Source: an uncultured Clostridia bacterium
GTDB lineage: Bacteria > Bacillota > Clostridia > Oscillospirales > Oscillospiraceae
DNA: 62,035 bases
Direction: 5' to 3'
Assembly: GCA_946411475.1 (NCBI GenBank)
Contig: CAMKED010000001.1
Coordinates: 1-62,035 of the forward strand
Part shown: positions 3,136-61,112 of the stretch, piece after piece
Numbering within the stretch: the stretch's first letter is position 1
Layout: the number at the start of each line of letters is the position of its first letter
Notes under the pieces: model-generated
Seen by the model: the letters and a program-made list of their open reading frames with translations, nothing else
What the model was told of the DNA's origin: nothing
The model's database searches: none
Made by a program: the position numbers and the translations under genes

Positions 3136-3230
3136 ATATGAAGTATTTCTGCGAAATATGAAGTATGCCTTGCGGCACATGAAGTATCTCTTTTCGAGAT
3201 ATGAAGTATGTGCGTCAGCAAGTACTTCAT
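3136..3230. repeat. GAAGTAT mini-hairpin module (4 direct units + 1 inverted unit)
   Basis: TGAAGTAT occurs at 3139, 3159, 3180 and 3202, and inverted (TACTTCA) at 3223. Each 12-14-nt spacer is itself a small hairpin (tatttcTGCgaaata, tgccTTGCggca, atctcTTTTCgagat). The last arm contains the comFC stop codon. Confidence 0.9.
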
Positions 3231-3868
3231 GCCTGCGTGACGGCCAGCGCGGCCACGTCTACGGACTTTGCGCCTGCTTCCAGCAGGACGCGGCTTGCCT
3301 CGGAGACGGTAGCGCCGGTCGTCAGCACGTCGTCGATCAGCAGGATCCGCTTTCCGCGCACGGCTTCCGGGTCGCGAACGCGAAAGGCCCCGTGAATATT
3401 TTGCTGCCGTTCTTCCGGCCCGAGGGTCCGCGACTGCGGCCTGACCCGGCTGCGTTTTTGCAGCGTGGAGACGGGCTTCATACCCAGCGCCTTTCCGACC
3501 GCCTGGGCCAGCAGCTCCGACTGATCGTAGCCCCGCCGCCAGCGGCGAAGCGGGCTCACGGCCACGTAAGTCAGCAGGTCGAAGTCCCTGCCCAGCCGTT
3601 CCTCCACAGCCTTTGCCAGCCAGGGCCCGTAATACCGGGCGTAGAAGCGGCAGTCGCTGAATTTGAAGCGCAGAATGGAAGCGCGGCAGTCGCCCTCATA
3701 CCAAAGCGCAGCGGCCCAGCGGCGGTAGTGTGACCCGCGCCTGGCCCCGGAGATCGGCTCCGGGATCGCGGCGGCGCAGTCCGGGCAGAGCCGTTCCGCG
3801 TCCGGCCCGACCAGCTTGTGGCAGATCACGCAGCGCCGCGGCCAGAGCAAATCTTTTATCAGATCCAT
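3227..3868 (-). CDS. comFC: ComF family protein (phosphoribosyltransferase-like, ComFC)
   Basis: The internal ATG at 3868 of ORF 3227..3961 gives an N-terminal CxxC...CxxC zinc finger (CVICHKLV...CPDCAAAI) and a C-terminal PRTase motif (LLIDDVLTTGATV). Confidence 0.8.
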   Translation of the reverse strand: MDLIKDLLWPRRCVICHKLVGPDAERLCPDCAAAIPEPISGARRGSHYRRWAAALWYEGDCRASILRFKFSDCRFYARYYGPWLAKAVEERLGRDFDLLTYVAVSPLRRWRRGYDQSELLAQAVGKALGMKPVSTLQKRSRVRPQSRTLGPEERQQNIHGAFRVRDPEAVRGKRILLIDDVLTTGATVSEASRVLLEAGAKSVDVAALAVTQA

Positions 3869-3880
3869 ACAACTACGTTC

Positions 3881-4040
3881 GGGGCGTCCCCGAAAGGACT
3901 TGCTTCGCTTCGGAGGACGCTGCCCCCTACAAGCGGGTTCCGTACCTGTCATTCTGAGCAAAGCGAAGAATCCGCCCCCGTCTCCTGTTGCCGATTGCCT
4001 AATACCTAATGCCTATTGTCTATCGTCTGTTTCCTATTGC
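3881..4040. repeat. Mosaic repeat block (GC hairpin, GTCATTCTGAGC...GAAGAATCC unit, CTATTGCC-type stutter)
   Basis: The unit gtcattctgagcaaagcgaagaatcc lies at 3948-3973. It is followed by tctcctgttgccgattgcctaatacctaatgcctattgtctatcgtctgtttcctattgcc. The stutter supplies the recD2 stop (cta at 4034-4036). Confidence 0.85.
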
Positions 4041-6261: not shown

Positions 6262-6361
6262 CCTCTCCGTAGGGGCGGCCGGTGGCCGCCCGCTGCGCGT
6301 CCCTCGTCTCCTATTGCCTGTTGCCTATAGCTTATAGCCTATTGCCTAAATATCTATTGCC
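6262..6361. repeat. GTAG-headed palindrome plus CTATTGCC stutter
   Basis: ccGTAGGGGCGGCCggtGGCCGCCC lies at 6269-6291. It is followed by tctcctattgcctgttgcctatagcttatagcctattgcctaaatatctattgcc (6307-6361). Confidence 0.85.
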
Positions 6362-6805: not shown

Positions 6806-8317
6806 TTAATAATCCTTAGTATTTTCAATAACGATGTGAAGCAGGTTTCGCAGTGCCTGACCGTCAGAGAACAGATACTCTTCCGCTCGATCGGAGCTGT
6901 ATTCCTTCCCCGGCTCGTACAATACCAGACCTTTTTCATACAGGCAGCCCCGGATCCACGCGGCTCCCCGTTTCAAACAGAATTCCATCCATGCTTGTCC
7001 CATGTCCTCGGAATGATCCAGCGGTTTTTCCAATTCCAGTCCCCGGATCGCTTCCTCGAATTGTTCGCAGATCTCAGCGTCCTTGCAGAACTCGCTGTCG
7101 GAACCAGCGTGCGGAAAAGGCAGCACTGCGCTCACGCTCCAGCCGCCGCCGTCCCGATCCAAGAGCTCTGTCTGGACGGTCCCGCCGATTGCCGTGACCC
7201 CAAGCATACCATAGAGAAAGAAAAAGAAAACGGACAGCCCGAAGATTGCAAGGAAGCCTGCCCGCCGCTTTTGCGGGTGCAGCACCTGCGCCATCCGATA
7301 GCGCAGCCCCGAAGCGGAGGCGGAGAGGCAGGTGGTAAAGCCCATGGCCGTTCCGGCGTTGCTGAGCAGCAGACCGGCATAATTTTTGCGTTGTTCTTCT
7401 GTTAATTCGTTTGTGGCCAGCTCGTCGCAGCAGAGCTCCAGATCCTCAGCGGCTTTCCCCAGACCCGGCCAAAGCATGGGAATGAACCAACCTGCCGCGC
7501 AGAGAAAGCCCAGCGTGAATTTCAACCAGTTGTCCTGATGCATCAGATGGATGGCTTCGTGGCGGAAGATCAGCCGCAGCTCCTGCTCGCTGTATTCCCG
7601 CTGGGGCAGAACAAGGCATCGCGTTTTTTCCCACAAGCCGATGACCAAAGGGCAATCCACAGCAGGAGAGCGCAGGACAGACACTTCTTTACTGGGGCTC
7701 ACGTTGTTTTCAATCTCTGCCCGCTTCTTGTTTTCGTCGAAGCAGAGCGCCCTCCAGGTAGATAAAAAGAGATTACGTTCCTGTGCTGACACGGGAACCG
7801 CGTCCCACAAAAGGGCCTTCCGAAAGCGAAGATGGGAGACGAGCTTCCAGATCAGAACGGCGAAGAAGCCTGCCGCCCAAACAAGCAGGGCGATCCACAG
7901 GGCAGAGCGGGGCAGACGCACAACAAACAGCGGAGCATCGGGAGTAAATTTGTGCAGCAGCAGGACCAGAAAAAAATAAAATATCAGATTTGGAAGCAGC
8001 CACAGTGCGGCGCAGCCCCGCGCGGAGATCCGTTTCCGCAGCAGCGGCGTCAGCGCCCAAAGCAGGGCGGAATAAACAAGCGTCGCCGCAAGCATCCGAA
8101 GCAGTTTTGCGAGATAAGAGAAGAACAGCCCTAAAAAGAAAGATAATAAGAGAAGCAAAAAAAACACGTCGGGGAGCGCCTGCGGGTAATAATCCGGCGC
8201 AAAGCGGTTGCGGCTTCGAGAAATAGCGCGAGTGAGCGCAAACGTCATCAGCGTATACGCACCAAGGAGCAGCGCATACAGCAACAGGGAGCCCAGCCGG
8301 GATAAAAGGTCAGTCAT
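6806..8317 (-). CDS. M56 family (BlaR1/MecR1-like) membrane metallopeptidase, no PBP sensor domain
   Basis: 503 aa and multi-TM. The HExxH motif (FRHEAIHLMHQDNW) sits in the typical M56 context. The C-terminal ~150 aa are not penicillin-binding-like. Confidence 0.8.
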   Translation of the reverse strand: MTDLLSRLGSLLLYALLLGAYTLMTFALTRAISRSRNRFAPDYYPQALPDVFFLLLLLSFFLGLFFSYLAKLLRMLAATLVYSALLWALTPLLRKRISARGCAALWLLPNLIFYFFLVLLLHKFTPDAPLFVVRLPRSALWIALLVWAAGFFAVLIWKLVSHLRFRKALLWDAVPVSAQERNLFLSTWRALCFDENKKRAEIENNVSPSKEVSVLRSPAVDCPLVIGLWEKTRCLVLPQREYSEQELRLIFRHEAIHLMHQDNWLKFTLGFLCAAGWFIPMLWPGLGKAAEDLELCCDELATNELTEEQRKNYAGLLLSNAGTAMGFTTCLSASASGLRYRMAQVLHPQKRRAGFLAIFGLSVFFFFLYGMLGVTAIGGTVQTELLDRDGGGWSVSAVLPFPHAGSDSEFCKDAEICEQFEEAIRGLELEKPLDHSEDMGQAWMEFCLKRGAAWIRGCLYEKGLVLYEPGKEYSSDRAEEYLFSDGQALRNLLHIVIENTKDY

Positions 8318-8392
8318 TTCAATTCCTCATTTCTGTGCGTGGGAGAGAACACAATATAAAATCACGCGTACATGCGTTCAAAACGTGCGGGA

Positions 8393-9937
8393 TCAGGGAT
8401 CAGGGATCAGATACACCGTGGGCTTGCTGTCGTCCGTATAGCGCTGACCGTACAGTTCAACGTCCCCGGCATGGACCACGATCCGATCTGCAAAGACCCG
8501 GAGCAGCATTTTTTCTCCGTTGTCCCGCGCCAGGATCACACGGACTTCCTCAGAGGAAGGGACTTTCCAGTATTCGTAATAAGGAATGTCGTATTCGAAC
8601 AGATCCTGATTGTCCTTCCACAGTGCACGTTCCAGCTTCAGACCCTGCAGCTCCTTCTCCGTCGTCTCCACAAGCACCGGACTTGTGCTGTATGTACGCA
8701 CATGGCGGGAATAAACAGCATAAACCTGCCAGCCCTTGTCCAGAATCTCGGTCTGGACGGTGCCAAGCCGCGCCTGAATGCCGACGCTCCCGATCAGGAG
8801 AAAAAACAGAGCGATGATAAGGATGTTGACGTTATGTGTACTGATTCGACGGCGCGGGAGCAGGACCTGCTTCAAGCGATAGCGGAAGCCCCGGGCAGAG
8901 GCGGAGAGGCAGGTGGTAAAGCCTTTGGCCGTTCCAGCGTTGCTGAGCAGCAGATTGGCGTACGCTCTGCGCTGCTCCGGCTCCATATCCGCCGTGGCGA
9001 CCTCGTCGCAGCAGAGTTCCAGGTCCTCCGAGGCCTTTCCGATCCCAAACCAGAGCGAGGGAATGAACCACCCGGCGGCGCAGATCAGCGCCAGAAAAAC
9101 CTTGGTGCGGATGTCGTCACGGAGCAGATGAATGATCTCGTGCCGCAGGATCATCTCCAAGTCGTCCCGACTGTATGCCTGGGCCGGCAGCACCAGATAG
9201 ATGTTTTTATTCCGCAGGCCGATGGTGAGGGGAGAGGAAACCGCCGGGGAGCGGAGAATATGACGGTAATCCAGAATTGCCTCTACGTGGCGGCAGACAC
9301 TGCGTTCGACGGAGTTCCGGTAAGTCACTTCCGCGGGAAGCACCATCGCCTGCCACACCTGCGCGTAAAGTCCGTATTCCCACTGCTCCGCCTGGACCGC
9401 GTCTTGCAGGATGTGCTTCCGGAAGCGCAGGTGGAAGAACATCTTCCACAGCAGCACGCTGAGGAACCCAATCAGCCAGGTCACAAACGCCGTCCAAAGA
9501 ACGGGACTGGAAAGCCGAATCACAAGCAAGGGATCGGCCATGATCCGACGCTGGAGGATCAGAGGGCCACAGAAAAGCGCACCCGGCACGATCCAAAGCT
9601 CCGCACAGGTGCGAGCGGAAAAGTGCCGCCGCAGCCAAGGCATCAGCGCAAGCAGCAGGATTGTGATCGGGAGCAGAAGAAACAGGAAAGCCAAGTCCCA
9701 GTGGAGCATCGGGACAAATTCGCTCGGTGTAAGAAGGCAGACAATGTGAAAGAGGAGGAATAAAAGACCATAGACATATAGAAAGGTGTACGGTCCCGTC
9801 GTATATCGATATACGCCCGACGGCTTTTCATTCTGTTTTTTCAAGCGCTTATGGCGCCGGTCCAGATAGCCGACGAGCGCGGCGGTCAGAAGCACGCTTC
9901 CGACTATGAACAATTTCTGCTTTATGGAAGAACTCAC
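8393..9937 (-). CDS. M56 family (BlaR1/MecR1-like) membrane metallopeptidase, paralog
   Basis: 514 aa with HExxH (LRHEIIHLLRDDIR). Its ATGA start overlaps the stop of the upstream BlaI-like gene. Confidence 0.8.
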   Translation of the reverse strand: MSSSIKQKLFIVGSVLLTAALVGYLDRRHKRLKKQNEKPSGVYRYTTGPYTFLYVYGLLFLLFHIVCLLTPSEFVPMLHWDLAFLFLLLPITILLLALMPWLRRHFSARTCAELWIVPGALFCGPLILQRRIMADPLLVIRLSSPVLWTAFVTWLIGFLSVLLWKMFFHLRFRKHILQDAVQAEQWEYGLYAQVWQAMVLPAEVTYRNSVERSVCRHVEAILDYRHILRSPAVSSPLTIGLRNKNIYLVLPAQAYSRDDLEMILRHEIIHLLRDDIRTKVFLALICAAGWFIPSLWFGIGKASEDLELCCDEVATADMEPEQRRAYANLLLSNAGTAKGFTTCLSASARGFRYRLKQVLLPRRRISTHNVNILIIALFFLLIGSVGIQARLGTVQTEILDKGWQVYAVYSRHVRTYSTSPVLVETTEKELQGLKLERALWKDNQDLFEYDIPYYEYWKVPSSEEVRVILARDNGEKMLLRVFADRIVVHAGDVELYGQRYTDDSKPTVYLIPDP

Positions 9938-10518: not shown

Positions 10519-10573
10519 GGGCGCACAATGTGCGCCCCTACGGCCAATTCTCAACTCTCAATTTTCAACTTTT
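10519..10573. repeat. Inverted GTAG-palindrome plus TTGARA stutter
   Basis: GGGCGCACAaTGTGCGCCCCTAC lies at 10519-10541. It is followed by ccaattctcaactctcaattttcaactttt, and this stutter contains the stop of the DUF4830 gene. Confidence 0.85.
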
Positions 10574-11044: not shown

Positions 11045-11102
11045 CCATGATGTCTGGTGCAGTCTATGATTTACTGCATTGAACTATTCCAAAATTCGCA
11101 GC

Positions 11103-11323
11103 GCCGGAAATCTGCCGGCCAAGTCAAGTCCGTAGTGCCGGTAATCTGCCGGCCAAGTCAAGTCCGTAGTGCCGGTAATCTGCCGGCCAAGTCAAGTCCG
11201 TAGTGCCGGCAATCTGCCGGCCAAGTCAAGTCCGTAGTGCCGGCAATCTGCTGGCCAAGTCAAGTCCGTAGTGCCGGCAATCTGCCGGCCAAGTCAAGTC
11301 CGTAGTGCCGGCAATCTGCCGGC
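11103..11323. repeat. 34-bp tandem repeat, 7 hairpin copies
   Basis: The unit is CTGCCGGCCAAGTCAAGTCCGTAGTGCCGGnAAT. TCTGCC recurs at 11111, 11145, 11179, 11213, 11247, 11281 and 11315 (period exactly 34). The variable position runs A, T, T, C, C, C, C. Each unit carries GCCGGnAATCTGCCGGC. Confidence 0.95.
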
Positions 11324-11339
11324 TGTTTCAGGAGATAAA

Positions 11340-12038: not shown

Positions 12039-12290
12039 AGTATGTGCCTCGCACATATTTGGACGCTGAACTCTGAACCCTGAACTCTACGGAAGCTATT
12101 ACAAACAACAGCCACCCCTCCACCGCCTTGAGGCGGTCCCCCTCCCCTGCAAGCAGGGGAGGTCATGCCCTGAACTCTACGGAAGCTATTACAAACAACA
12201 GCCACCCCTCCACCGCCTTGAGGCGGTCCCCCTCCCCTGCAAGCAGGGGAGGTCATGCCCTGAACTCTGAACCCACCCTGATCTCTGTTC
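12033..12290. repeat. GAAGTAT unit, TCAGRGT stutter and two identical tandem copies of a 90-nt element
   Basis: Copies 12081-12170 and 12171-12260 are identical 90/90: tgaactctacggaagctattacaaacaacagccacccctccaccgccttgaggcggtccccctcccctgcaagcaggggaggtcatgccc. A third copy lies inverted at 46751-46840. Confidence 0.95.
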
Positions 12291-12519
12291 CCTGTTCCTA
12301 TACAAATTCCACAAAGCAAAATCATTGACAAATCCAGTAAAAACGATTGCTCTGATTCGGGTGAAATTGGCCACATCGCCGGATTTGTTGTCTTTTTGCA
12401 TAAATAATTCTTCAAAAATTAACGGAAAATACCAAAAAGCTCTTGCAAAATGAATGCGGATAGGGTATGATAAAGCTTAGACATTGTATAAACCATCACA
12501 CTGACAGGAGTGCGGTAAT

Positions 12520-13616: not shown

Positions 13617-13664
13617 GTAGGGACAAGCATTGCTTGTCCGCGGACGAGCGCTGCTCGTCCCTAC
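13617..13664. repeat. Inverted doublet of GTAGGGAC palindromes (REPIN-like)
   Basis: The sequence is GTAGGGACAAGCATTGCTTGTCC-gc-GGACGAGCGCTGCTCGTCCCTAC. It begins 3 nt after the stop of the CdaR-like gene. Confidence 0.9.
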
Positions 13665-15289: not shown

Positions 15290-16624
15290 ATGTACAAGCA
15301 TCGCAGATTGATCGTTTCGGTGATCGCCGGACTGCTTGCGCTGCTGCTTGTCGGAGGCCTGATTCTCAACGCTGTCGCAGAAAGCTCCGGCGCCATCAAA
15401 TCCCGCATCGAATCCCTGAAGCGGGAGGAGGAAGAGATCGCCGCCGAGAAGAAAGCCGCCGCAGAGCAGCGGGAATCCAACGAATCGGAGATCCTGGACC
15501 TGGTGGAGAAAAAGAACCAGATCGATCAGCAGATCAAGCTGACCCAGGAATCCATCGAAACGAAGAATGAACTGATCCGGGAGTACAGCCTCCTGATCGC
15601 AGAAAAGCAGAACGAGCTCGGCGACGCCGTGCAGGGACGCGACAGCCTGAACGAGCAATACCGCGTCCGCATCCGCGCCATGGAAGAGAACGGAAAGCTG
15701 ACCTATTGGTCGATTCTGTTCAAGGCAAACAGCTTTGCAGATCTTCTGGACCGCGTGGAGATGATCAACGAGATTGCCAGCTCCGACGCCAGAATGATCA
15801 ACCAGCTCCAGGCAGCCGCGCAGCAAATTGAAATTGCCCGCCAGGAGCTTGCCGCCGAAAAGGTGGAGATGGAAGAGGCGAAGGAGTCCCTGGCTGCCGA
15901 GCAGCAGGAACTGGAACAACAGCGCGCTGAGGCCGACGGCGTAATGGCAGAGCTGATGGCGGACCATGAAGAGTATGCCGCGGCGGAAAGCAAGTACGCG
16001 GCCGAGCAGGAAGCGCTGCTGGCCAAGATCGCCTCGGAGGAGACGAAGTATCAGCAGGCAGTGGCTGCGGAGGAACAGGCCCGCCGTGAGGCGGAGGCTG
16101 CCGCCAGGGCCCGCGAACAGGCTGCCAAGGAACGGGAGAAAGAGGCGTCCGGCGGAGGCAGCTCCTCCGGCGGAAGCAGCTCCGGCGGCGGCAGCTCCTA
16201 CAACGGCGCGGTCAGCAGCTACGGCTTCAGTTGGCCCTGCACCGCACGGGCGCTGACCTGCCCGTTCGGACCGCGCGTTCACCCCATTACCGGCGTTTAC
16301 AGCAATCACAGCGGCGTGGACATCGGCGCCAGCTATGGCTCTCCCATCTATGCCTGCGCCTCCGGCACCGTGACCACCGCCACCTACGGCACGGCCTACG
16401 GCTACTACGTGACGATCAACCACGGCAACGGTTTCTCTACGCTTTACGGCCATATGATCCGCTACACGGTCAGCTCGGGCGATTACGTGACCCGCGGCGA
16501 GATCATCGGCTACGTGGGCAGCACCGGCTGGTCCACCGGCCCGCATCTGCATCTGACCATGTACCACAACGGGACGCTGGTCAACCCGCTGGACTATCTG
16601 CCTGCAGGCGGATACTTCGTATAA
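15290..16624 (+). CDS. Coiled-coil M23 (LytM-type) peptidoglycan metalloendopeptidase
   Basis: A signal/TM segment is followed by a long coiled coil, a GGSSS linker and an intact M23 domain (HSGVDIGASYGSPIYA...GSTGWSTGPHLHL). The start is chosen at 15290; 15281 is an alternative. Confidence 0.85.
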   Translation: MYKHRRLIVSVIAGLLALLLVGGLILNAVAESSGAIKSRIESLKREEEEIAAEKKAAAEQRESNESEILDLVEKKNQIDQQIKLTQESIETKNELIREYSLLIAEKQNELGDAVQGRDSLNEQYRVRIRAMEENGKLTYWSILFKANSFADLLDRVEMINEIASSDARMINQLQAAAQQIEIARQELAAEKVEMEEAKESLAAEQQELEQQRAEADGVMAELMADHEEYAAAESKYAAEQEALLAKIASEETKYQQAVAAEEQARREAEAAARAREQAAKEREKEASGGGSSSGGSSSGGGSSYNGAVSSYGFSWPCTARALTCPFGPRVHPITGVYSNHSGVDIGASYGSPIYACASGTVTTATYGTAYGYYVTINHGNGFSTLYGHMIRYTVSSGDYVTRGEIIGYVGSTGWSTGPHLHLTMYHNGTLVNPLDYLPAGGYFV

Positions 16625-16652
16625 TCTGAGAGAACAGAAAGAAAGGCATGCA

Positions 16653-17879: not shown

Positions 17880-17905
17880 GATAGGACGAGCTCGCTCGTC
17901 CTATC
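17880..17905. repeat. Degenerate GTAGGGAC-type palindrome (GATAGGAC head)
   Basis: The sequence is GATAGGACGAGCtcGCTCGTCCTATC, directly downstream of the second M23 gene. Confidence 0.75.
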
Positions 17906-19390: not shown

Positions 19391-19475
19391 GGCTGTAGGG
19401 ACGGCACCCTGCCGTCCGTGGTTCAGAGTTCAGGGTTCCGGGTTCAGAGCCCGCAGCGCGGGCAATCTGCCCGCC
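19387..19475. repeat. GTAG heads, GTAGGGAC palindrome, TCAGRGT stutter, GCGGGCAATCTGCCCGC hairpin
   Basis: The sequence is cCGTAGggctGTAGGGACGGCAcccTGCCGTCC, then gtggttcagagttcagggttccgggttcagag, then gcgggcaatctgcccgcc. The stop TAG of the S41 gene (19388-19390) is part of the first GTAG. Confidence 0.85.
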
Positions 19476-19624
19476 CGGTTTGCCGGAGGAAAACAATCAG
19501 ATAACAGATAATCGTTTCGGTATTGCTGCGCGATGAATTGTAGTTCTATTTGCCAATTCGTTGAATTGGAAAAAAACGACAATTCTCAATTCTCACCGCT
19601 CAATTCTAAATACAGGAGCTGTCA

Positions 19625-20239: not shown

Positions 20240-20307
20240 CAAACGGAAATCCGCCCTGTATAATATAGCGACGCAAAAGTAAAATGTGTCAGAAAGGCGG
20301 GACCGAC

Positions 20308-20799: not shown

Positions 20800-21014
20800 G
20801 TAGGGGCGCACAGTGTGCGCCACGGGAGGAAGTGCGTTATCGAGACACCACCTCATCCGTCATCGGGCTTCCGTGAGACGCCCGCTGCCACCAGCGCTTA
20901 ATGTTGCCAGTTGCGTCAGCATAGCTGCCGCACTGGCGATGAAATCCACAACAGTCCCCCGGACTGTTGTGTCCCCTCAAGGGGAAGGCTTTGTAGGGGC
21001 GCACAGTGTGCGCC
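20800..21014. repeat. Mosaic block between greA and lysS
   Basis: GTAGGGGCGCACAGTGTGCGCC occurs at 20800 and again at 20993 (direct). ccacctcatccgtcatcgggcttccgtgagacgcccgctgccacc lies at 20848-20892, the hairpin CACAACAGTCCcccGGACTGTTGTG at 20947-20971, and CCCCTCAAGGGGAAGG at 20972-20989. Confidence 0.9.
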
Positions 21015-26782: not shown

Positions 26783-26856
26783 GTTGATCGTTTCCTTTCC
26801 GTTTATGAATTACGGCAGCTCCGTGCAGAATTGCGGAAAGACCCCGGTTCTCGGCG

Positions 26857-32344: not shown

Positions 32345-33145
32345 ATGTTCCAAAAGCTTACTGATACGTCATATGCCGTCTCCGCCTGGTCCGGCGGGAC
32401 GACGACGCAGCTTGCAATTTTTCCGCCGGAGGCAAAGTATGCCGACCGGGACTTCCTTTGGCGGGTCAGCTCTGCCACGGTGGATCTGGAGGAATCGGAC
32501 TTCACCGCCCTGCCGGACTATGACCGCCTGATCGCCACCCTGCAGGGGGAGATCGTACTGACCCACAACGGCGGCGCGCCGATAAAGCTTCACCCTTTCG
32601 AGGTCCACGCCTTTTCCGGTGCGGACGCGACGCACAGCGTCGGCTGCTGCACGGACTTCAACCTGATGCTCCGCCGCGGCCGCGCCGCCGGAACCATGGA
32701 GGCTTTGCGTCTGACGGACGCACCGACCCGCCTCTCCGTAGGGACAAGCATTGCTTGTCCGAAAACCTCCCCTGCAAGCAGGGGAGGAGGAGCGCCGCAG
32801 CGCGGCGCGGAGGAGGGGTGCCTCCCGCCCGAGGTACCAACTGCCCCCGCTGTAGGGACAAGCATTGCTTGTCCGCCCAATGCCTCTGAAGAGACGCTGC
32901 TTCTCTACTGCGCAGAGGGTTCCTGCACCGCAACCGTAGGGGCGGTTGAAACCTCCCCTGCAAGCAGGGGAGGTGGAGCGCCGCAGCGCGGCGCGGAGGA
33001 GGGGTGTTGCCCGCAACCCGCAGCGGCTATCCCCGTCTCCCTCCGCGCAGGCGAAACCCTCCTGCTGACTGCCCCCGCAGCGCTGACCTTCACCGGCGAG
33101 GCCACCCTCATGCTCTGCCGGATCCGGACTGACAACAAAACGTAA
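32345..33145 (+). CDS. HutD/Ves family protein carrying two in-frame repeat-derived insertions
   Basis: The ATG at 32345 follows caggagg. It shows HutD-like sequence (SAWSGGTTTQLAIFPPEAKYADRDFLWRVSSATVDLEESDFTALPDYDRLIATLQGE). At 266 aa it is longer than the ~185 aa usual for the family. The extra ~80 aa map exactly onto repeat units at 32736-33010. Confidence 0.7.
   Translation: MFQKLTDTSYAVSAWSGGTTTQLAIFPPEAKYADRDFLWRVSSATVDLEESDFTALPDYDRLIATLQGEIVLTHNGGAPIKLHPFEVHAFSGADATHSVGCCTDFNLMLRRGRAAGTMEALRLTDAPTRLSVGTSIACPKTSPASRGGGAPQRGAEEGCLPPEVPTAPAVGTSIACPPNASEETLLLYCAEGSCTATVGAVETSPASRGGGAPQRGAEEGCCPQPAAAIPVSLRAGETLLLTAPAALTFTGEATLMLCRIRTDNKT
32736..33010. repeat. Intragenic repeat units inside the hutD-like ORF
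   Basis: GTAGGGACAAGCATTGCTTGTCC occurs at 32738 and 32852. CCTCCCCTGCAAGCAGGGGAGG + GAGCGCCGCAGCGCGGCGCGGAGGAGGGGTG occurs at 32767-32820 and 32952-33006. A GTAGGGGCGG head lies at 32936. Confidence 0.9.
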
Positions 33146-36109: not shown

Positions 36110-36422
36110 GCCTTCCCCTTGAGGGGAAGGTGCCCCAGTGCGCACACTGGGGCGGATGAGGTGGTGCCCCAGCAACGCAATTGAGAGTTGAGAATTGAGA
36201 ATTGTCGGTGTTTTGCAGATTGCCATCTGCAAAACGAAAAACGATGAAGCCGACAGCGACGCGAAGACAGAGCCAGCGCTACAGGCCGTAGGGACGACTC
36301 GGAGCCGTCCGCATATTCCTTTTTTCATCGTTCAAATGGCAATTTGAACGATACCATCACTTTCAACGTTCCATTTTCAACTTTCAACTGTTTTTCCCCT
36401 GGCACACACTGTGCGCCCCTAC
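36110..36422. repeat. Large mosaic repeat block between the M28 and aldo/keto reductase genes
   Basis: The block holds GCCTTCCCCTTGAGGGGAAGG + TGCCCCAGTGCGCACACTGGGGC + GGATGAGGTGG (36110-36164) and a TTGAGAR stutter (36181-36204). It also holds the AT hairpins GTTTTGCAGATtgccATCTGCAAAAC (36210-36235) and TCGTTCAAATggcaATTTGAACGA (36328-36351). GTAGGGACGACTCGGAGCCGTCC lies at 36288, a TTTCAAC stutter at 36361-36390, and an inverted GTAG palindrome at 36401-36422. Confidence 0.9.
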
Positions 36423-38266: not shown

Positions 38267-38289
38267 GTAGCGGCGCACACTGGTGCGCC
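38267..38289. repeat. GTAG-headed palindrome (GTAGCGGCGCAC variant)
   Basis: The sequence is GTAGCGGCGCACACtgGTGCGCC. Confidence 0.85.
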
Positions 38290-38325
38290 ACGCTGCCAAA
38301 CGAACCTGAAACAAAGGAGCCTTAC

Positions 38326-38904: not shown

Positions 38905-38908
38905 CAAA

Positions 38909-42466: not shown

Positions 42467-42508
42467 CAGTTTTACACCCGCCTGCAGGGACGGCACTCTG
42501 CCGTCTGC
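42445..42508. repeat. GTGACA stutter plus degenerate GGGAC palindrome
   Basis: caagtgacaggtgacaattgacag contains the kinase stop at 42464-42466. It is followed by GCAGGGACGGCActcTGCCGTCTGC (42484-42508). Confidence 0.75.
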
Positions 42509-42853: not shown

Positions 42854-42891
42854 TCCGGGAACAGCACAGACGCTGCTCCCGGACATTTTTT
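42853..42891. terminator. Intrinsic terminator (bidirectional position)
   Basis: GTCCGGGAACAGCacagacGCTGCTCCCGGAC is followed by attttttg. Confidence 0.8.
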
Positions 42892-42918
42892 GTCAATTGT
42901 CACCTGTCACTTGTCACT
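42891..42918. repeat. TGTCAC stutter
   Basis: The sequence is tgtcaattgtcacctgtcacttgtcact. It contains the stop (tca at 42914-42916) of the transketolase C-terminal subunit gene. Confidence 0.8.
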
Positions 42919-46675: not shown

Positions 46676-46893
46676 TTTGGGTTCAGAGTTCAGAGTCCGT
46701 AGGGACGAGCATTGCTCGTCCGTGGTTCAGAGTTCAGGGTTCAGAGTTCAGGGTATGACCTCCCCTGCTTGCAGGGGAGGGGGACCGCCTCAAGGCGGTG
46801 GAGGGGTGGCTGTTGTATGTAATTGCTTCCGTAGGGTTCAGAGTTCAGGGTTCAGAGTTCAGAGTCCGTCCCCTGTTGCCGATTGCCTTGTCA
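46676..46893. repeat. Mosaic block: TCAGRGT stutter, GTAGGGAC palindrome, inverted 90-nt element, CTGTTGCC stutter
   Basis: gggttcagagttcagagtcc is followed by GTAGGGACGAGCATTGCTCGTCC (46699-46721) and another stutter. The inverted copy of the 12081-12170 element lies at 46751-46840 (86/90 identical by eye). A further stutter and ccctgttgccgattgccttgtcacc follow. Confidence 0.9.
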
Positions 46894-48072: not shown

Positions 48073-48094
48073 TGTTTACGCTCCTGTGAAGGAA

Positions 48095-48387
48095 TGAAGT
48101 ATTGCCTGGAGGCAATATGAAGTATTCCTTCGGAATATGAAGGATCTCTTTTGGAGAGATATGAAGTATGTGCGACGCGCATATCTGGAAGCAAGGGAAG
48201 GTGTCTCGTGGAAAGTCGTAGGGATGAGCAGTGCTCGTCCGGCATTCGTACCCAGTCGGATCGCCCCGAGAGCGGACAAGCAGTGCTTGTCCCTACATCC
48301 GGAAAGATATGGCGCAGCTATACTTCATAAGCAAAGTGTCTTCATACGGCGAAGCCGTACTTCACATTTGCGTCAGCAAATACTTCA
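48095..48387. repeat. Composite palindrome: 4 GAAGTAT units, a GTAGGGA REPIN-like doublet, then 4 inverted units
   Basis: TGAAGTAT/TGAAGGAT occurs at 48095, 48118, 48138 and 48162. GTAGGGATGAGCAGTGCTCGTCC (48218-48240) and the inverted GGACAAGCAGTGCTTGTCCCTAC (48274-48296) sit in the centre. ATACTTCA-type units follow at 48320, 48338 (degenerate), 48357 and 48380. Confidence 0.9.
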
Positions 48388-48391
48388 TTTC

Positions 48392-50197
<1,806 letters not shown>

Positions 50198-50272: not shown

Positions 50273-50328
50273 GGCCAAAAAAGCTGTTGCGGCGCGCTTC
50301 GGCAGCGGCGCGGGACCCGCTTCCCCGC

Positions 50329-50506
50329 CTGTCATTCTGAACGAAGTGAAGAATCCGTACCCCCGCGGCAAGCCGCAGGCGTAAATGAATCCTGAAAAAC
50401 GAAAAACTGTAAAATGAAGAATGGGGGTATTCTCAAATTGCCATTTGAGAATGAATTGAAATAGAGACGAGGGACGCGGATTCTTCGCGTTGCTCAGAAT
50501 GACAGG
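50329..50506. repeat. MITE-like element bounded by inverted GTCATTCTGA...GAAGAATCCG units
   Basis: The left end is cctgtcattctgaacgaagtgaagaatccg (50329-50358). The right end is cggattcttcgcgttgctcagaatgacagg (50477-50506). The interior holds a GC hairpin CCGCGGCAAGCCGCAGG and the AT hairpin ATTCTCAAATtgccATTTGAGAAT (50429-50452). Confidence 0.8.
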
Positions 50507-50554
50507 CACTGAAACGCCCGTGGGTTTTATTATTTTTCAAAAATGAAAAAGCTC

Positions 50555-53120: not shown

Positions 53121-53326
53121 GAATAGTTGAAAGTTGAAAATGGAAAGGTATCTATTCAGTCGCACCCGCTCCGTAGTGGCCGCGCACCTGCGCGGCCATG
53201 GCGCGTATCGCTTTTTTCTGTGGATTTATGGCCGCGCAGGTGCGCGGCCACTACGACCCTGCTGAACAGATACATGGCAATTTGAAAAACTCCTCCATTT
53301 TCAACTCTCAACGTTCATTTTTCAAC
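53121..53326. repeat. TTGAAAR stutters flanking a long REPIN-like inverted doublet
   Basis: gaatagttgaaagttgaaaatggaaagg leads into GTATCTATTCAG...GTAGTGGCCGCGCAccTGCGCGGCCAT (53173-53199). A 28-nt spacer separates it from ATGGCCGCGCAggTGCGCGGCCACTAC (53228-53254) and ...CTGAACAGATAC. The block ends with ccattttcaactctcaacgttcatttttcaactc. Confidence 0.9.
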
Positions 53327-54173: not shown

Positions 54174-55507
54174 GCTTCTGCATGTAGGGACAAGCATTGC
54201 TTGTCCGTCTGAATTGCTTGCCGTACCGTGTCAATGGAAATCCCCTGTTCCAGTGCAATACGCGCCAGGTCATCATATTCGTATTTGACCCGTTCCACGC
54301 CGAACCCGGAGGCAATCTTTCGCCGCACGGGGCCGAACGCGGTCTCTACGGTGTCCACCCGCCGCTCCAACACGGCCCGGCGCAGGACGGCTTCCCGCAC
54401 CCCTAAGGTCGTGGTGTGCCGGAAGAGCAGGGAGATCATGCTGTCCCGATCTGCGTGTTTACATAACACACAAAACATCGTTCCGGGACGGCCTTTCTTC
54501 ATCCCAATGGCCTCGGTCCAAACGTCCAGCGCCCCGGCCTCCAACAGCCGCTCGACCGCGAAGCCGACGGCCTCGCCCGTCATGTCGTCGAGATTGCAGC
54601 GGAGCTCCAGCACCTCGTCGGCCTCCTGCTCCGCCGTTTCGCCCAGCAGGGCGCGGACGCAGTTGGCCGCAGGGAAGTCCTTCCGGCCCATGCCGTAGCC
54701 GATGGCTGCGGTCCGCATCACGGGCATTGCCCCGAACTTGTTGACATAATATTTTAACAAGGCCGCGCCCGTCGGCGTGCAGAGCTCGCCCTGGATCGCG
54801 CCGCCGTAGATCGGCACGCCCCGCAGCAGCTCCGCCGTAGCGGGGGCTGGGACGGGCATCAGCCCGTGCGCGCAGCGAACCTGCCCGCAGCCGACGTGGA
54901 TGGGGGAGCAGAGGATCTGTGCCGGGGCCAGCTCGTGGATCAGCAGGCAGACGGCCGCCACGTCGGCCACCGCGTCCAGGGAGCCCACCTCATGGAAGTG
55001 GATCTCCTCCACCGGGACGCCGTGCACCTTGCTCTCAGCCTCAGCCAGCAGCCCGTATACCGCCAGCACGTCAGCCTTGACCGCCTCGGGCAGGTCAAGA
55101 TGATCCTGCACCAGATGCGCGATCCCATGCATCCCGGTATGGGGATGATGATGGTGCTCCCCGTCCCCTGGTGACTGTTGACTGGTGACTGGCGACTCAT
55201 GATGCTCATGCTCGTGCGCCTCGGGAAAGCCTTCCCCCTGGGGGGAAGGTGTCGGCGCAGCCGACGGATGAGGGGGTGTCTCGTCGTGGTGATGCACATG
55301 CTCCTCCGCGCCGTCCACGGTCACGCGCATGTGCGTGCCGGAAATGCCGCACTTCACGGAATTCTCGGCCCGGTATTCCACCCCGGGGATGCCGAGCGCG
55401 TTGAGCCGGGCCAAAAACTCCGCCTTGTCGGGCAGCAGCTCGAGCAGGGCCGCCGTGAGCATGTCGCCCGCGGCGCCCATAGAGCAGTCAAAATAGAGTG
55501 TTTTCAT
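54170..55507 (-). CDS. larC: Nickel insertion protein LarC (nickel-pincer cofactor biosynthesis)
   Basis: 445 aa. MKTLYFDCSMGAAGDMLTAALLEL... is the DUF111 N-terminus. A His-rich central region carries a repeat-derived insert. Confidence 0.85.
   Translation of the reverse strand: MKTLYFDCSMGAAGDMLTAALLELLPDKAEFLARLNALGIPGVEYRAENSVKCGISGTHMRVTVDGAEEHVHHHDETPPHPSAAPTPSPQGEGFPEAHEHEHHESPVTSQQSPGDGEHHHHPHTGMHGIAHLVQDHLDLPEAVKADVLAVYGLLAEAESKVHGVPVEEIHFHEVGSLDAVADVAAVCLLIHELAPAQILCSPIHVGCGQVRCAHGLMPVPAPATAELLRGVPIYGGAIQGELCTPTGAALLKYYVNKFGAMPVMRTAAIGYGMGRKDFPAANCVRALLGETAEQEADEVLELRCNLDDMTGEAVGFAVERLLEAGALDVWTEAIGMKKGRPGTMFCVLCKHADRDSMISLLFRHTTTLGVREAVLRRAVLERRVDTVETAFGPVRRKIASGFGVERVKYEYDDLARIALEQGISIDTVRQAIQTDKQCLSLHAEA
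54184..54206. repeat. GTAGGGAC palindrome inside the last codons of larC
   Basis: GTAGGGACAAGCATTGCTTGTCC on the plus strand is read on the minus strand as ...TDKQCLSLHAEA*, ending at the larC/larE ATGA junction. Confidence 0.9.
55170..55277. repeat. Intragenic GTGAC stutter and CCTTCCCC composite inside larC
   Basis: ggtgactgttgactggtgactggcgac spans 55170-55196. GCCTTCCCCCTGGGGGGAAGG + TGTCGGCGCAGCCGAC + GGATGAGGGGG spans 55230-55277. The block translates on the minus strand as PPHPSAAPTPSPQGEGF...SPVTSQQSP. Confidence 0.9.
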
Positions 55508-58014: not shown

Positions 58015-58644
58015 CTACCTTCTATTATCTATATCCTGTGGTTTTTTGTCAATAGGAGATTTCATGTTTTTTGAAATTTTATACCATAAACAGGCGAGCC
58101 AGTAGCCCATGATCGCCCCGGCGGTGTTCAGGATCAGATCGTCCAGCTCCGAGACCCCGGAGCCCAGAACGAATTGCATCGTCTCAATGCCCAGCGAGAG
58201 CAGAAAGCCCCACAGCATTGCAACTGTAGCGCCGGCAATCTGCCGGCCATTCTTCCGTAAGGGACGGGTTTCCCGGCCCGCCGCCGCAGCTCCCTGTAGC
58301 GGCGCACACCGGTGCGCCACGGGGAACGGTGCATTGTCGGTACGCCCCTCATCCGTCAGCGGGCTTGCGTGAGACGCCCGCTGCCACCTTCCCCCTCGGG
58401 GGAAGGCATTCCGCAGCCGCACCAGCACGCCCACCGGCATGAACCAAACCAGATTTCCCACAAACAGATAGGTGAAATACCGCCAGTATTCGATCCGAAT
58501 CAGCTTTGCGTAATAGGCAAAGGCGTCCCATTCGATCCGCCCGGAGAAGAGCCCGTGCCGAAAGCAGCCGTTCCGGAATACAGTCAGACGCAGCAGGGCG
58601 GCAAGCCAGAGAACGGCAAGCACCCGGATTACAGTTTTTTTCAT
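58015..58644 (-). CDS. VanZ family protein carrying a ~61-codon in-frame repeat-derived insertion
   Basis: Its ends are VanZ-like (MKKTVIRVLAVLWLAALLRLTVF... and ...LLSLGIETMQFVLGSGVSELDDLILNTAGAIMGY). The central 58225-58407 is made entirely of repeat units. Confidence 0.65.
   Translation of the reverse strand: MKKTVIRVLAVLWLAALLRLTVFRNGCFRHGLFSGRIEWDAFAYYAKLIRIEYWRYFTYLFVGNLVWFMPVGVLVRLRNAFPRGGRWQRASHASPLTDEGRTDNAPFPVAHRCAPLQGAAAAGRETRPLRKNGRQIAGATVAMLWGFLLSLGIETMQFVLGSGVSELDDLILNTAGAIMGYWLACLWYKISKNMKSPIDKKPQDIDNRR
58225..58407. repeat. Intragenic block of four repeat units inside the vanZ-like ORF
   Basis: The units are GTAGCGCCGGCAATCTGCCGGCC (58225-58247), GTAAGGGACGGGTTTCCCGGCCC (58257-58279) and GTAGCGGCGCACACcgGTGCGCC (58296-58318). 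The fourth is CCCCTCATCC + GTCAGCGGGCttgcgtgagacGCCCGCTGC + CACCTTCCCCCTCGGGGGAAGGC (58345-58407). Confidence 0.9.
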
Positions 58645-58654: not shown

Positions 58655-58750
58655 TTTCAGTTGAAAGTTGAAAATGGAAAGTTGAAAATGAATGTGTTTT
58701 GCAAATTGCAATTTGCAAAACTCCAAAATTCTCCATTCTCACTTCTCAAT
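58655..58750. repeat. TTGAAAR stutter, AT hairpin, TTCTCA stutter
   Basis: tttcagttgaaagttgaaaatggaaagttgaaaatgaa is followed by GTTTTGCAAATtgcaATTTGCAAAAC (58696-58721). Then comes ccaaaattctccattctcacttctcaatt, which contains the cinA stop at 58739-58741. Confidence 0.85.
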
Positions 58751-59227
58751 TAACTCCACCGCCAGATCTGCCGCCGCCTCCGCTGCCATGCAGCGGATCG
58801 CGTTCCGATCACCGTCGAATTTGCATTCCCGGGCCATGGTGATCTCCCCGTTGGAGGCGCTGACGTAGACCAGGCCCACGGGGCGGCCCGTGTCGTCGGA
58901 ATTCGGCCCGGCGATCCCGGTGATGCCGATTCCCAGATCCGCGCCGATCACCCGGCGCACCCCCTCGGCCATCTGCCGTGCCACAGGCTCCGAGACGGGG
59001 CCGAGGCTGTCCAGCAGCGTCTGATCCACACCCAAAATATCATGCTTGATCCGATTGCAGTAGGAAATCACGCCGCCCGGATAGACGGCGGAGCTGCCGG
59101 ATATGTCGGTGATAGACTTCCCGAGCAGCCCGCCCGTGCAGGACTCGGCCGTGGCGACGGTCAGGTGTTTGTTCTTGAGAAATTGTACCAATATTTCAAT
59201 CTGTGTAATCTTATGGGGCATCATCAT
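58739..59227 (-). CDS. pncC: CinA C-terminal domain protein (nicotinamide-nucleotide amidohydrolase PncC-like)
   Basis: The translation shows ...LTVATAESCTGGLLG..., ...GVISYCNRIKHDILGV... and ...GITGIAGP... The start is at 59227 or 59221. Confidence 0.85.
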   Translation of the reverse strand: MMMPHKITQIEILVQFLKNKHLTVATAESCTGGLLGKSITDISGSSAVYPGGVISYCNRIKHDILGVDQTLLDSLGPVSEPVARQMAEGVRRVIGADLGIGITGIAGPNSDDTGRPVGLVYVSASNGEITMARECKFDGDRNAIRCMAAEAAADLAVELIEK

Positions 59228-59660: not shown

Positions 59661-59790
59661 GGACGGCTGCGAGCCGTCCCTACTGGCGTTCCCGTCTGTC
59701 ATTCTGCCTTGCCTTGAGCGCAGTCGAAAGGGGAGCGAAGAATCCGTATTCCCCGTCTCCTGTTGCCTGCTGCCGATTGTCTTCTATCCC
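59661..59790. repeat. Inverted GTAGGGAC palindrome, interrupted GTCATTCTG...GAAGAATCC unit, CTGTTGCC stutter
   Basis: GGACGGCTgcgAGCCGTCCCTAC lies at 59661-59683. gtcattctg[ccttgccttgagcgcagtcgaaagggga]gcgaagaatccg follows at 59698-59745. Then comes ccccgtctcctgttgcctgctgccgattgtcttctatcc, which contains the thiI stop (cta at 59784-59786). Confidence 0.85.
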
Positions 59791-60962
59791 TGATACCGGA
59801 TCTTGACCAGCTCGGTGTTCTCGATGGCGCGGGCGATCAGCCCCTCCACGTCGAGCTTCTGCTCGATGCGCTCCGCCTCGGCCAGCTTGGGCTTGGTCTT
59901 GGGGTGTTTGGGCGTGAAGACGGTGCAGCAGTCCTCGTAGGGGAGAATGGAGGTGTCCAGCGTGTCGATCCGCCGGGCAAGGACGACGATCTCCTCCTTG
60001 TCCATGCCAATGAGCGGGTGGAACACGGGCATGTCCACCACCGCGTGGGTCACGTTCATGGCCTGCATGGTCTGGGAGGCCACCTGACCCAGGTTTTCGC
60101 CGGTGACCAGGCACTCGCAGCCGTGATCCCGGGCAATGCGCTCGGCGATCCGCATCATGAACCTACGCATGATGATCGTGAAGTATTCCTCCGGGCAGTT
60201 GTCCCGGATGGCCTCCTGAATTTCGGTGAAGCCCACGATGTCCACGGTCATGCGGCCGCAGTAGCGTGCCATTTTCCGGGCCAGCTCCAGCACCTTGTCC
60301 TTGGCCAGCTCTGAGGTATAGGGGTAGGAGAAAAAGTGGATGGCCTCTAACTCCACGCCGCGCTTGGCGATCATGTAGCCCGCCACGGGAGAATCAATGC
60401 CGCCTGAGAGCAGAACTGCCGCCCGTCCGCCCACGCCGGTGGGCAGGCCGCCCGCGCCGGGCTCGGCCGGGCCGTGGACGTAGGCCGCAAAGTCGCGTAC
60501 CTCCACGTAGACCGTGTAATCCGGCTTGTGGACGTCCACCGGAACCTCGGGATAGGCTTCTGCCAGCCGTCCGCCGATGGTCTGAGAGATCTGGATGGAG
60601 TTGAGCGGAAAACGCTTGTCGGAGCGCTTGGACTCCACCTTGAAGGACTTGGCCGCCGCCAGATCGTCGCCCAGGTAGGCCACCACCGCGTCAAAAATCG
60701 CGTCCTCGCTTTTCTCGCAGGGACGGCAGCGGCAGAGGGAAATCGCACCGAAGATCGTGTGGCAGGCGTCCCAGGCCCCGTCCACGTCGCAGAGCTCGTT
60801 TTCCGGCTCCACGTAGACCGTGGACTGCAAAATCGTGACCTTGAAGTCCCCAAAGGGCCGCATCCGCCGCGCCACGTTGGTGCGCAGCTTGTTTTCAAAC
60901 ATCTTCTTGTTCGCGCCCTTGAGGACGATTTCTCCTAATTTCAGTAAAAAGATTTCGTTCAT
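59784..60962 (-). CDS. thiI: tRNA 4-thiouridine(8) synthase ThiI
   Basis: The internal ATG at 60962 follows aaggagaa. MNEIFLLKLGEIVLKGANKKMFE... is the THUMP-domain N-terminus, and LLSGGIDSPVAGYMIAKRG is the PP-loop. Confidence 0.9.
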   Translation of the reverse strand: MNEIFLLKLGEIVLKGANKKMFENKLRTNVARRMRPFGDFKVTILQSTVYVEPENELCDVDGAWDACHTIFGAISLCRCRPCEKSEDAIFDAVVAYLGDDLAAAKSFKVESKRSDKRFPLNSIQISQTIGGRLAEAYPEVPVDVHKPDYTVYVEVRDFAAYVHGPAEPGAGGLPTGVGGRAAVLLSGGIDSPVAGYMIAKRGVELEAIHFFSYPYTSELAKDKVLELARKMARYCGRMTVDIVGFTEIQEAIRDNCPEEYFTIIMRRFMMRIAERIARDHGCECLVTGENLGQVASQTMQAMNVTHAVVDMPVFHPLIGMDKEEIVVLARRIDTLDTSILPYEDCCTVFTPKHPKTKPKLAEAERIEQKLDVEGLIARAIENTELVKIRYQG

Positions 60963-60986
60963 GGGTATTCTCCTTGGTTCAAAATA

Positions 60987-61112
60987 GCCTTCCCCTTGAG
61001 GGGAAGGTGGCACGGCGAAGCCGTGACGGATGAGGTGGTGTTCCGCGTATACGGAAGGAAAAAGCAAAGCAGGCAGTTCGTTCCCGGCAAGCCTTCCCCT
61101 CAAGGGGAAGGC
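60987..61112. repeat. CCTTCCCC composite element plus a second CCTTCCCC hairpin
   Basis: GCCTTCCCCTTGAGGGGAAGG + TGGCACGGCGAAGCCGTGAC + GGATGAGGTGG spans 60987-61038. GCCTTCCCCTCAAGGGGAAGGC lies at 61091-61112. Confidence 0.9.

Follow-up and report, generated by a model that had tools for sequence, protein, structure and literature searches.

Repetitive extragenic palindromic (REP) elements of the GTAG superfamily and their REP-associated tyrosine transposases (RAYTs) are the closest described systems to the short palindromes studied here, which are scattered over contig CAMKED010000001.1 of an uncultured Oscillospiraceae bacterium (the window, i.e., the whole stretch of 62,035 nucleotides). 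That GTAG REPs form dimers, lie downstream of genes, have intragenic copies and are linked to RAYTs is established (PMC3733652). In this superfamily (Di Nocera et al. 2013), an unpaired 5' GTAG precedes, at a distance of 0-1 nt, a GC-rich hairpin (stem 7-9 bp, loop 3-4 nt), several families are found per genome (e.g., the SMAGs of Stenotrophomonas maltophilia), arranged in head-to-head (HH) dimers, clusters and tandem arrays, most units are located downstream of genes, with some intragenic and in frame, and RAYT genes are associated with them. The window units are alike in these features, the RAYT genes being those of relatives, and the active S. maltophilia REP (PMC8266576) has the same 23-nt design. 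However, the hosts for which the survey lists GTAG repeats (PMC3733652) are Proteobacteria, Cyanobacteria, Chloroflexi and the Planctomycetes-Verrucomicrobia-Chlamydiae (PVC) group, not Firmicutes, whereas here the host belongs to the Oscillospiraceae, and the window units have clade-specific stems that often lie beside heptamer microsatellites and two other hairpin families.

On the enzyme side, enzymes of RAYT Groups 2 and 3 have been shown biochemically to cleave single-stranded REPs at CT or CA, with GTAG as the guide (PMC8266576). The REPIN-RAYT systems of Pseudomonas and Enterobacteria (Bertels & Rainey 2011, PMC3116915) resemble our case in having inverted REP doublets as the unit (53173/53254 and 13617/13664 in the window) and in the correspondence of one REP family to one RAYT lineage; their RAYTs, in contrast, are members of Groups 2 and 3, with REPs beside the gene rather than within it. 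For subclass 2.4 (Quentin et al. 2018, PMC6006769), which equals RAYT Group 4 (Bertels et al. 2017, PMC5581495), the original text gives the motifs NH[IFV]H, WQ and YIxNNP together with in-frame REPs within the gene, stated there to be unique to the subclass, and the description is mainly from Cyanobacteria and Bacteroidetes. RAYT Group 1 has been noted in Clostridia, without strong REP association (PMC5581495), and a whole-word literature search returned no REP population described for Clostridia beyond passing mentions.

We interpret the window palindromes as GTAG-superfamily REP elements of ~26 nt, non-autonomous, each family being cognate to a RAYT encoded elsewhere in the genome, and we give this reading a probability of roughly 0.85. 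This is a genuine REP-RAYT system, and its interest lies in the extension to Clostridia and in a large family of "self-tagged" RAYTs (see below). A preliminary description of the window had already proposed REP-like elements in a member of the Clostridia, which is supported here; its claim of novelty was overstated, as the GTAG REP-RAYT system is well known in several phyla.

By hand count, the window contains 27 intact GTAG-plus-hairpin units and about six degenerate ones (Table 1). The intact set is made up of 21 single or dimer units and the six GTAG units of a 34-nt tandem array, and the degenerate heads are of the GCAG, GTAAG and GATAG types or truncated. At every coordinate of the preliminary description, a GC-rich hairpin was found behind a GTAG or degenerate head, and only its site at 17880, a GATAG perfect palindrome, is doubtful as a REP. 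The span had been given as 3136-61112, with real REPs confined to 6269-59683 and other repeat families making up both ends. An independent scan (GTAG, then a hairpin of at least 7 bp within 0-2 nt) also returned 27 matches, of which those at 25973, 47488 and 61533 look like chance and the one at 32936 is a truncated head, while three mismatched array units were missed. The density amounts to ~0.45 units/kb. Stems measure 7-9 bp and loops 3-4 nt, the design of 23 nt being GTAG, 8 bp and a 3-nt loop, and four dimers, all with GTAG outside, are present besides the array. The subfamilies are distinguished by their arms (A, GGACRAGC; B, GGGCGCAC; C, TGGCCGCG; D, GCCGGCA).

The units are strongly over-represented within the window, both against shuffles and against other tetramers. 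Allowing at most one mismatch, GTAGGGACNAGC has 8 matches versus 0.64 expected, a number reached by none of 100 shuffles, and 13 perfect hairpins have GTAG right at their foot, versus a mean of 0.7 in dinucleotide shuffles. A hairpin follows 8.4% of all window GTAG tetramers versus ~2% for other common tetramers. When folded as single-stranded DNA, consensus units form the stem and leave GTAG unpaired (-8 to -13 kcal/mol, z -2.6 to -4.6). One 23-mer is identical in five window copies that have unrelated flanks.

Since counting pairs on an alignment that was chosen for pairing is circular, covariation was assessed by fixing only the head and the outer 4 bp (GTAGGGRC-N4-N3-N4-GYCC) and scoring the four inner pairs. 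These were fully complementary in 11 of 12 window units and in 106 of 118 units of relatives (117/130 together), with at least 14 different inner stems. The head and the hairpin geometry are therefore kept, and the stem sequence changes by compensatory substitutions, both in the window and in relatives. Among 322 distinct units, position -2 is C in 54%, position -1 is C or T in 94% and a G follows the stem in 88%, beyond which the sequence is random; such sharp edges with random flanks indicate discrete inserted units, unlike conserved regulatory regions. By analogy, the C-pyrimidine 5' of GTAG is compatible with the CT/CA cleavage of characterised RAYTs.

Regarding position, the units at 13617, 19395, 20800, 38267 and 10519 start 2-24 nt past a stop codon and are oriented like the upstream gene. 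In relatives (heuristic gene calls), 292 of 382 classifiable units are intergenic, and those at most 15 nt from a stop are in sense orientation by 29:4. Intragenic in-frame units occur in the window in a HutD-like open reading frame (ORF), where VGTSIACP is encoded twice, in a VanZ-like ORF (three units, antisense) and in the last codons of larC. Window singletons number 11 on the + strand (the array besides) versus 2 on the - strand, whatever the gene direction. A bias of this kind is predicted by a single-strand, replication-linked mechanism; the GC skew of the window is too flat to tell the leading from the lagging strand.

The window, with a GC content of ~58%, represents by sequence comparison a rumen Oscillospiraceae-type Clostridium, a placement that relies on two loci, L054 (Oscillospiraceae Tb.RUG.182) and L111, 84-86% identical to parts of it (L-numbers designate the contigs or loci from related assemblies or metagenomes used for comparison). 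Contigs with proteins identical to those of the window (L001, L119-L128) originate from gut metagenomes, of sheep among others, and exact-protein look-ups for 20284-20796 and 38326-38868 matched no record. In a scan of species-representative genomes, the exact subfamily A motif was found in at least 117 stretches from at least 58 species-level assemblies; among the matches listed, almost all are ruminant-gut metagenome-assembled genomes (MAGs) labelled Oscillospiraceae, Ruminococcaceae, Ruminococcus or Clostridia. Within 800 kb of related assemblies, and with the copies used as search target taken out beforehand, GTAG stands exactly at the 5' foot of 178 of 392 GC-rich perfect hairpins, compared with 25 for the runner-up tetramer, and on both sides in none. 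Thus, the head is conserved well beyond the window, across 84 different stem-loops.

All six-frame ORFs of at least 70 aa in the window were searched by phmmer with the 4ER8 sequence and by a hidden Markov model (HMM) of six clade RAYTs, and no Y1 transposase (RAYT or IS200) was found, as the preliminary description had stated. Its suggestion that such genes be sought outside the window, next to copies of the same repeats, was borne out in relatives, where seven RAYT genes (six intact RAYT-like ORFs and one pseudogene) with cognate REPs were identified. Their best family is NCBIfam REP_Tyr_transpos (NF047646), the IS200 model giving at most 31 bits. In an alignment with E. coli TnpA-REP (reference sequence checked against 4ER8), both HUH histidines, the catalytic Tyr (YIxxNP), W94 and R104 (E. 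coli numbering) are invariant, and Q95, E100 and H101 are conserved in most sequences, E100 being D in three and L052 departing at Q95 and H101. According to PMC6006769, W94, Q95, E100, H101 and R104 are the residues that contact GTAG in the E. coli TnpA-REP crystal structure. The AlphaFold model of P0001, an L010-type protein (predicted local distance difference test, pLDDT, 84.9), has 4ER8 as its best PDB match (E 5e-9, TM-score 0.63, root-mean-square deviation (rmsd) 3.1 A), with IS608 and ISDra2 TnpA at E ~3e-6 and rmsd 7-15 A; the predicted fold in relatives is that of TnpA-REP rather than of IS200/IS605 TnpA.

These enzymes appear to fit subclass 2.4 (Group 4), an assignment made by motifs and in-frame REPs. 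Compared with the published description of that subclass (PMC6006769), they share the motifs NH[IVL]H, WQ and YIxNNP, a length of ~160-170 aa, in-frame intragenic REPs, tandem REP-derived peptide repeats (L039) and long perfect REP stems with G-C pairs at the foot; L052 deviates in two motifs (WE, YVTYNP). The L021 and L052 genes are classical REPtrons: the former is flanked by arrays of GTAGTGGCCGATG..., resembling window subfamily C, and the latter by GTAGCGGCGRSC..., resembling the GTAGCGGCGCAC variant (subfamily B-like). In the remaining five of the seven genes, an inverted REP pair lies inside the coding sequence, of subfamily A in L010 and L038. Among the metagenomic RAYT relatives described below, L143, L147 and L152 carry GTAGGGGCGCACAGTGTGCGCCC, which is window subfamily B. 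In addition, both arms of the RAYT on the L209 contig (39% GC) carry GTAGGGACGAGCATTGCTCGTCC, identical to the window unit at 46699, and the L213 contig (55% GC) has a RAYT with an A-type pair and five further A-type REPs within 20 kb. RAYT loops encoding the commonest window A variant, GGACAAGC (peptides VGTSIACP / GQAMLVPT), were found in none of the best 120 homologues, which gave solely the GGACGAGC, GGACGACC and GGGCGAGC types.

Some of these loci show further particularities. The L038 gene (4600-4900, CALCYI010000004.1) is a pseudogene with an internal stop, whose frame ends exactly after the 3' internal REP and is followed by unrelated sequence, suggesting a rearrangement at the REP. 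In L039 (1259-1960, ONPF01000005.1), the 3' internal REP is triplicated in tandem, which gives the repeated peptide GPSxTPAPTRExGT, and immediately upstream of the gene this REP occurs twice more. L209 (Logan DRR848540) has no REP in 6.3 kb apart from the RAYT arms; that this low-GC contig shares a REP with the 58%-GC window hints at either horizontal transfer of a self-contained RAYT+REP gene or a very strong DNA-level constraint.

The internal pair was found to be a feature of a wider family. A metagenome scan gave more than 507 RAYT relatives, of which the best 80, corresponding to 79 distinct genes, were analysed. In all 79, GTAG hairpins are located in the gene itself or at most 400 nt away; both internal REPs are present in 53, one in 11 and none in 14. 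All 14 genes without internal REPs have flanking ones, whereas the internal pair is accompanied by a REP flanking the gene at up to 400 nt in only 8 of 53. The 5' internal unit is in frame in 56 of 57 (GTA GGG, Val-Gly), and the two arms, on average 93% identical and at a median distance of 146 nt, lie on either side of the HUH codons. A protein search recovered 2282 clusters at E <= 1e-20, and among the best 120 of them the REP-encoded peptides were seen as a VG....RP loop in 115 and a GR....PT loop in 114. In the model, both peptides are surface loops, the one at residues 43-50 lying between two short strands and the one at 99-106 following the HUH strand.

In principle, REPs embedded in a RAYT gene were already known. 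However, according to the main text on subclass 2.4 (PMC6006769), insertions are situated "generally between HuH and Y" and occur "in addition to" flanking REPs, whereas in the present set 53 of 79 genes have a fixed inverted pair with the HUH between its two arms, and internal and flanking REPs are nearly mutually exclusive; that text mentions neither of these two features. Tentatively, the RAYT gene could be seen as self-tagged, i.e., carrying two of its own REPs in frame and inverted at fixed surface loops, where they would bracket the HUH-coding segment and largely replace the flanking REPs; we consider this less likely than not. It fits with the presence of one 23-nt REP inside RAYT genes on contigs of 39% and 55% GC, with arms that are ~93% identical though stems differ between genes, and with the L038 truncation exactly at the 3' internal REP. 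If self-tagging were functional, the ORF by itself would make up the complete system, the internal pair could be the master copy that seeds genomic REPs, or a site of self-regulation or self-inactivation, and a self-tagged ORF would explain the colonisation of distant hosts such as Clostridia.

Orthologous REP sites differ between species, a check that the preliminary description had set for its proposal. Upstream of hutD, L054 has an extra 58-nt insert with a GTAG REP, and inside hutD a larger REP cluster; at the 59661 locus, L111 has a different REP 5 nt past the orthologous stop, where the window has other sequence. In the spacer orthologous to the degenerate 42484 unit, three different REPs are found in L095, and between the orthologues that flank the window 13617/13664 dimer, L118 has no GTAG hairpin. 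Species that are 84-86% identical to the window therefore differ in REP content. Among conspecific strains, the subfamily D array has 3, 4 or 5 units versus 7 in the window, and in L001, a 99.5% identical contig, the only change is a point mutation in the head of the 13642 unit. REP turnover is real but slow.

Several observations weigh against the interpretation as a RAYT-mobilised population. The window, which is the only part of the source genome covered, holds no RAYT; the RAYT ORFs of relatives score 56.1-80.4 bits against an NCBIfam cut-off of 80, so that one of six passes and five lie at 56-79; and subclass 2.4 enzymes are without biochemical test in the literature consulted. A few assemblies with the A motif are labelled Muribaculaceae, Obscuribacterales or Alkaliphilus, which may be mis-binning. 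At the strain level, no single insertion or transposition event was caught, the single REPs 10519, 20800 and 20993 are identical in conspecific strains, and the change in array copy number could be replication slippage. Some of these points would also be expected if the elements were true REPs whose RAYT has been lost or inactivated, leaving a decaying, immobile set that is kept where harmless or useful. The lack of a RAYT in the window, the constancy of single sites among strains, the degenerate heads of ~6 of 33 units (GCAG, GTAAG, GATAG) and the L038 pseudogene fit such a fossil population, which we nevertheless regard as unlikely: the five identical 23-mers with unrelated flanks and the dimer arms with 100% complementarity over 28 nt point to recent copying, REP content differs between species that are 84-86% identical, and relatives have intact RAYTs with the same REP sequence.

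It is quite improbable that the units are host-selected RNA hairpins (terminators or 3'-end stabilisers) spread by recombination or convergent selection, with only an incidental RAYT link, even though many of them lie 2-24 nt past a stop codon, the near-stop units of relatives are mostly in sense and the stem is preserved by compensatory changes. A plain RNA hairpin would have no need of a one-sided, invariant, unpaired GTAG; both orientations are represented, and ORFs, divergent promoter regions and arrays contain units too; and the same head and hairpin are found in all 79 distinct RAYT relatives. The reading as intrinsic terminators was rejected, given that the T run after the hairpin is missing in all 27 units (no run of at least four T within 10 nt on either strand), although T-run terminators are present elsewhere in the window, e.g., after 491 and 24837. 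No Rfam family matched anywhere in the window, and a tRNA/tmRNA scan of it found none. [quoted passage not shown] Both are scarcely credible as an origin of the units: the window contains neither TnpA(IS200) nor TnpB, the RAYT model gives the associated enzymes far higher scores than the IS200 model does, their best superposition is with 4ER8, and the units are 23-26 nt long with nothing between paired ends. As for the CRISPR reading of the D array, it was rejected since the 12-nt "spacers" are identical, as in a plain tandem repeat.

Under the preferred interpretation as RAYT-mobilised REPs, the unit would be (C)Y-GTAG-stem-loop-stem-G. By analogy with the E. coli, Stenotrophomonas and Marinomonas enzymes, a RAYT (Y1 HUH enzyme) would bind the hairpin on single-stranded DNA, read the unpaired GTAG as a guide, and cut and rejoin at a nearby C-pyrimidine dinucleotide, which could seed new copies, inverted dimers and arrays. 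Settled units would then drift by compensatory changes, be tolerated in permissive protein loops, and may act as mRNA 3'-end hairpins. The several window subfamilies would match as many different RAYT lineages, which are of the subclass 2.4 (Group 4) type in this clade and usually have their own REP pair in frame. Catalysis of this kind, mobilisation of the units and an active RAYT in this genome are inferred.

To our knowledge, work on REP-RAYT systems has dealt almost solely with Proteobacteria and Cyanobacteria. The presence of several REP families at high density in uncultured Oscillospiraceae of the rumen and gut widens the range to a major Gram-positive gut lineage. REPs account for many odd short "hypothetical" peptides and in-frame inserts (e.g., VGTSIACP-type loops), and their repeats break metagenome assemblies, as many contigs of relatives are short. 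The D array, with 3 to 7 copies between strains, offers a strain-typing marker, and the RAYT genes with a REP pair (2282 protein clusters) are a tractable material for RAYT-REP co-evolution.

Table 1. GTAG-headed units of the window, with degenerate and doubtful copies (REP, repetitive extragenic palindromic element).
Feature	Position	Strand	State	Remarks
REP, subfamily B variant GTAGGGGCGGCCGGTGGCCGCCC	6269..6291	+	intact	
REP, subfamily B (GTAGGGGCGCACATTGTGCGCCC on - strand)	10519..10541	-	intact	Sense, 24 nt past DUF4830 stop; kept in 5 conspecific contigs
Tandem array, 7 subfamily D units, 34-nt period (GTAG-T-GCCGGCAATCTGCCGGC + CAAGTCAAGTCC)	11098..11325	+	6 intact heads	Head of unit 1 (11098) degenerate, GCAG
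REP, subfamily A, left arm of GTAG-outside dimer	13617..13639	+	intact	2 nt past stop of PucR-like gene
REP, subfamily A, right arm of 13617 dimer	13642..13664	-	intact	
Doubtful unit, perfect palindrome GATAGGACGAGC-TC-GCTCGTCCTATC	17880..17905	.	degenerate	Without GTAG head
REP, subfamily A variant (GGACGGCA stem)	19395..19417	+	intact	4 nt past CtpB-like stop; followed by GTTCAGA heptamers
D-like unit (GCAGCGCGGGCAATCTGCCCGCC)	19453..19475	+	degenerate	GCAG head
REP, subfamily B	20800..20821	+	intact	3 nt past GreA stop; kept in conspecific L125-L128
REP, subfamily B	20993..21014	+	intact	Upstream of lysS; kept in L125
REP, subfamily A	32738..32760	+	intact	In frame in HutD-like ORF, encodes VGTSIACP
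REP, subfamily A	32852..32874	+	intact	Second in-frame copy in HutD-like ORF
Truncated REP head (GTAGGGGCGG...)	32936..32948	+	degenerate	Abuts CCTCCCC double-hairpin element copy
REP, subfamily A variant	36288..36310	+	intact	One stem mismatch; GTAG-outside pair with 36401 unit
REP, subfamily B (GTAGGGGCGCACAGTGTGTGCC)	36401..36422	-	intact	
REP, GTAGCGGCGCAC variant	38267..38290	+	intact	4-nt loop; 10 nt past a stop codon
Subfamily A unit	42484..42507	+	degenerate	GCAG head
REP, subfamily A (GTAGGGACGAGCATTGCTCGTCC)	46699..46721	+	intact	Identical 23-mer embedded in L209 and L213 RAYT genes
REP, subfamily A, left arm of GTAG-outside dimer	48218..48240	+	intact	Dimer enclosed by inverted TGAAGTAT-hairpin arrays
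REP, subfamily A, right arm of 48218 dimer	48274..48296	-	intact	
REP, subfamily C, left arm	53173..53198	+	intact	Arms 100% complementary over 28 nt, spacer 28 nt; REPIN-like
REP, subfamily C, right arm of 53173 pair	53229..53254	-	intact	
REP, subfamily A	54184..54206	+	intact	Antisense in last larC codons, overlaps start of next gene
REP, subfamily D	58226..58247	+	intact	Antisense, in frame in VanZ-like ORF
Unit GTAAGGGACGGG...	58257..58279	+	degenerate	In VanZ-like ORF
REP, GTAGCGGCGCAC variant	58296..58319	+	intact	In VanZ-like ORF
REP, subfamily A variant (GGACGGCT stem)	59661..59683	-	intact	

Besides the REPs, a second family of tagged hairpins consists of arrays of short variable hairpins, each after a conserved (A)TGAAGTAT, of which 18 exact copies are present versus 0.59 expected. 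The arrays are located at 3136-3226, 32137-32330, 48090-48175 and 48320-48393. Two of them are inverted sets; one brackets the REP dimer 48218-48296, and the other is interrupted at its centre by a GTAG REP in L054. A third repeat family of ~56 nt has no GTAG head and comprises a hairpin CCTYCCCC-loop-GGGGRAGG, a second variable hairpin and a conserved tail, GGATGAGGTGG or GGAGGGGTGG. It was found at 12078-12268 (a 90-nt unit repeated 2.1 times), 20840-20990, 32763-32828, 32949-33014, 36109-36164, 38908-38963, 46756-46821, 55209-55257, 58379-58427, 60986-61041 and 61089-61113, with one copy in frame in the His-rich loop of larC (PSPQGEGFP) and copies beside the REPs in the HutD-like ORF. At ~20892-20969, a double-hairpin element copy is interrupted by a 78-nt insertion relative to conspecific L125 and L128, which terminates in a hairpin of its own (ACAACAGTCCCCCGGACTGTTGT) and represents an indel of another small element at the strain level.

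Intergenic period-7 microsatellites of 3-5 copies each (GTTCAGA, AGTTGAA, AATTGAG, CCTATTG, TTGTCAC) often abut REP heads or tails. Their sites are 6310-6348, 10545-10570, 12066-12088, 12276-12298, 19421-19449, 19580-19611, 36179-36204, 36359-36389, 42890-42919, 46681-46696, 46725-46754, 46836-46865, 53125-53147, 58659-58690 and 58727-58751, and L095 likewise has period-7 microsatellites (GAGAATT, CCTTGAT). A palindromic element, TGTCATTCTGAGCRAAGCGAAGAATCC, lies at gene ends at 3938-3982, 50318-50357 and 50469-50513, with a possible fourth copy just downstream of 59661-59683 and another inside the expanded HutD cluster of L054.

With regard to the genes, a stretch of lower GC at 33150-34860 contains two genes on the minus strand that encode zinc-ribbon membrane proteins (DUF6591; TM2 domain) and is possibly an island, the interval between the same conserved flanks being ~2.6 kb in L054 versus ~1.9 kb in the window. 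Finally, three adjacent paralogue pairs with 70-80% DNA identity were observed at 15299-17743, 24905-28683 and 6806-9937, which correspond to PcsB/M23 peptidase-like genes, ORFs of ~600 aa (24905-26782 and 26857-28662) and 500-aa genes.

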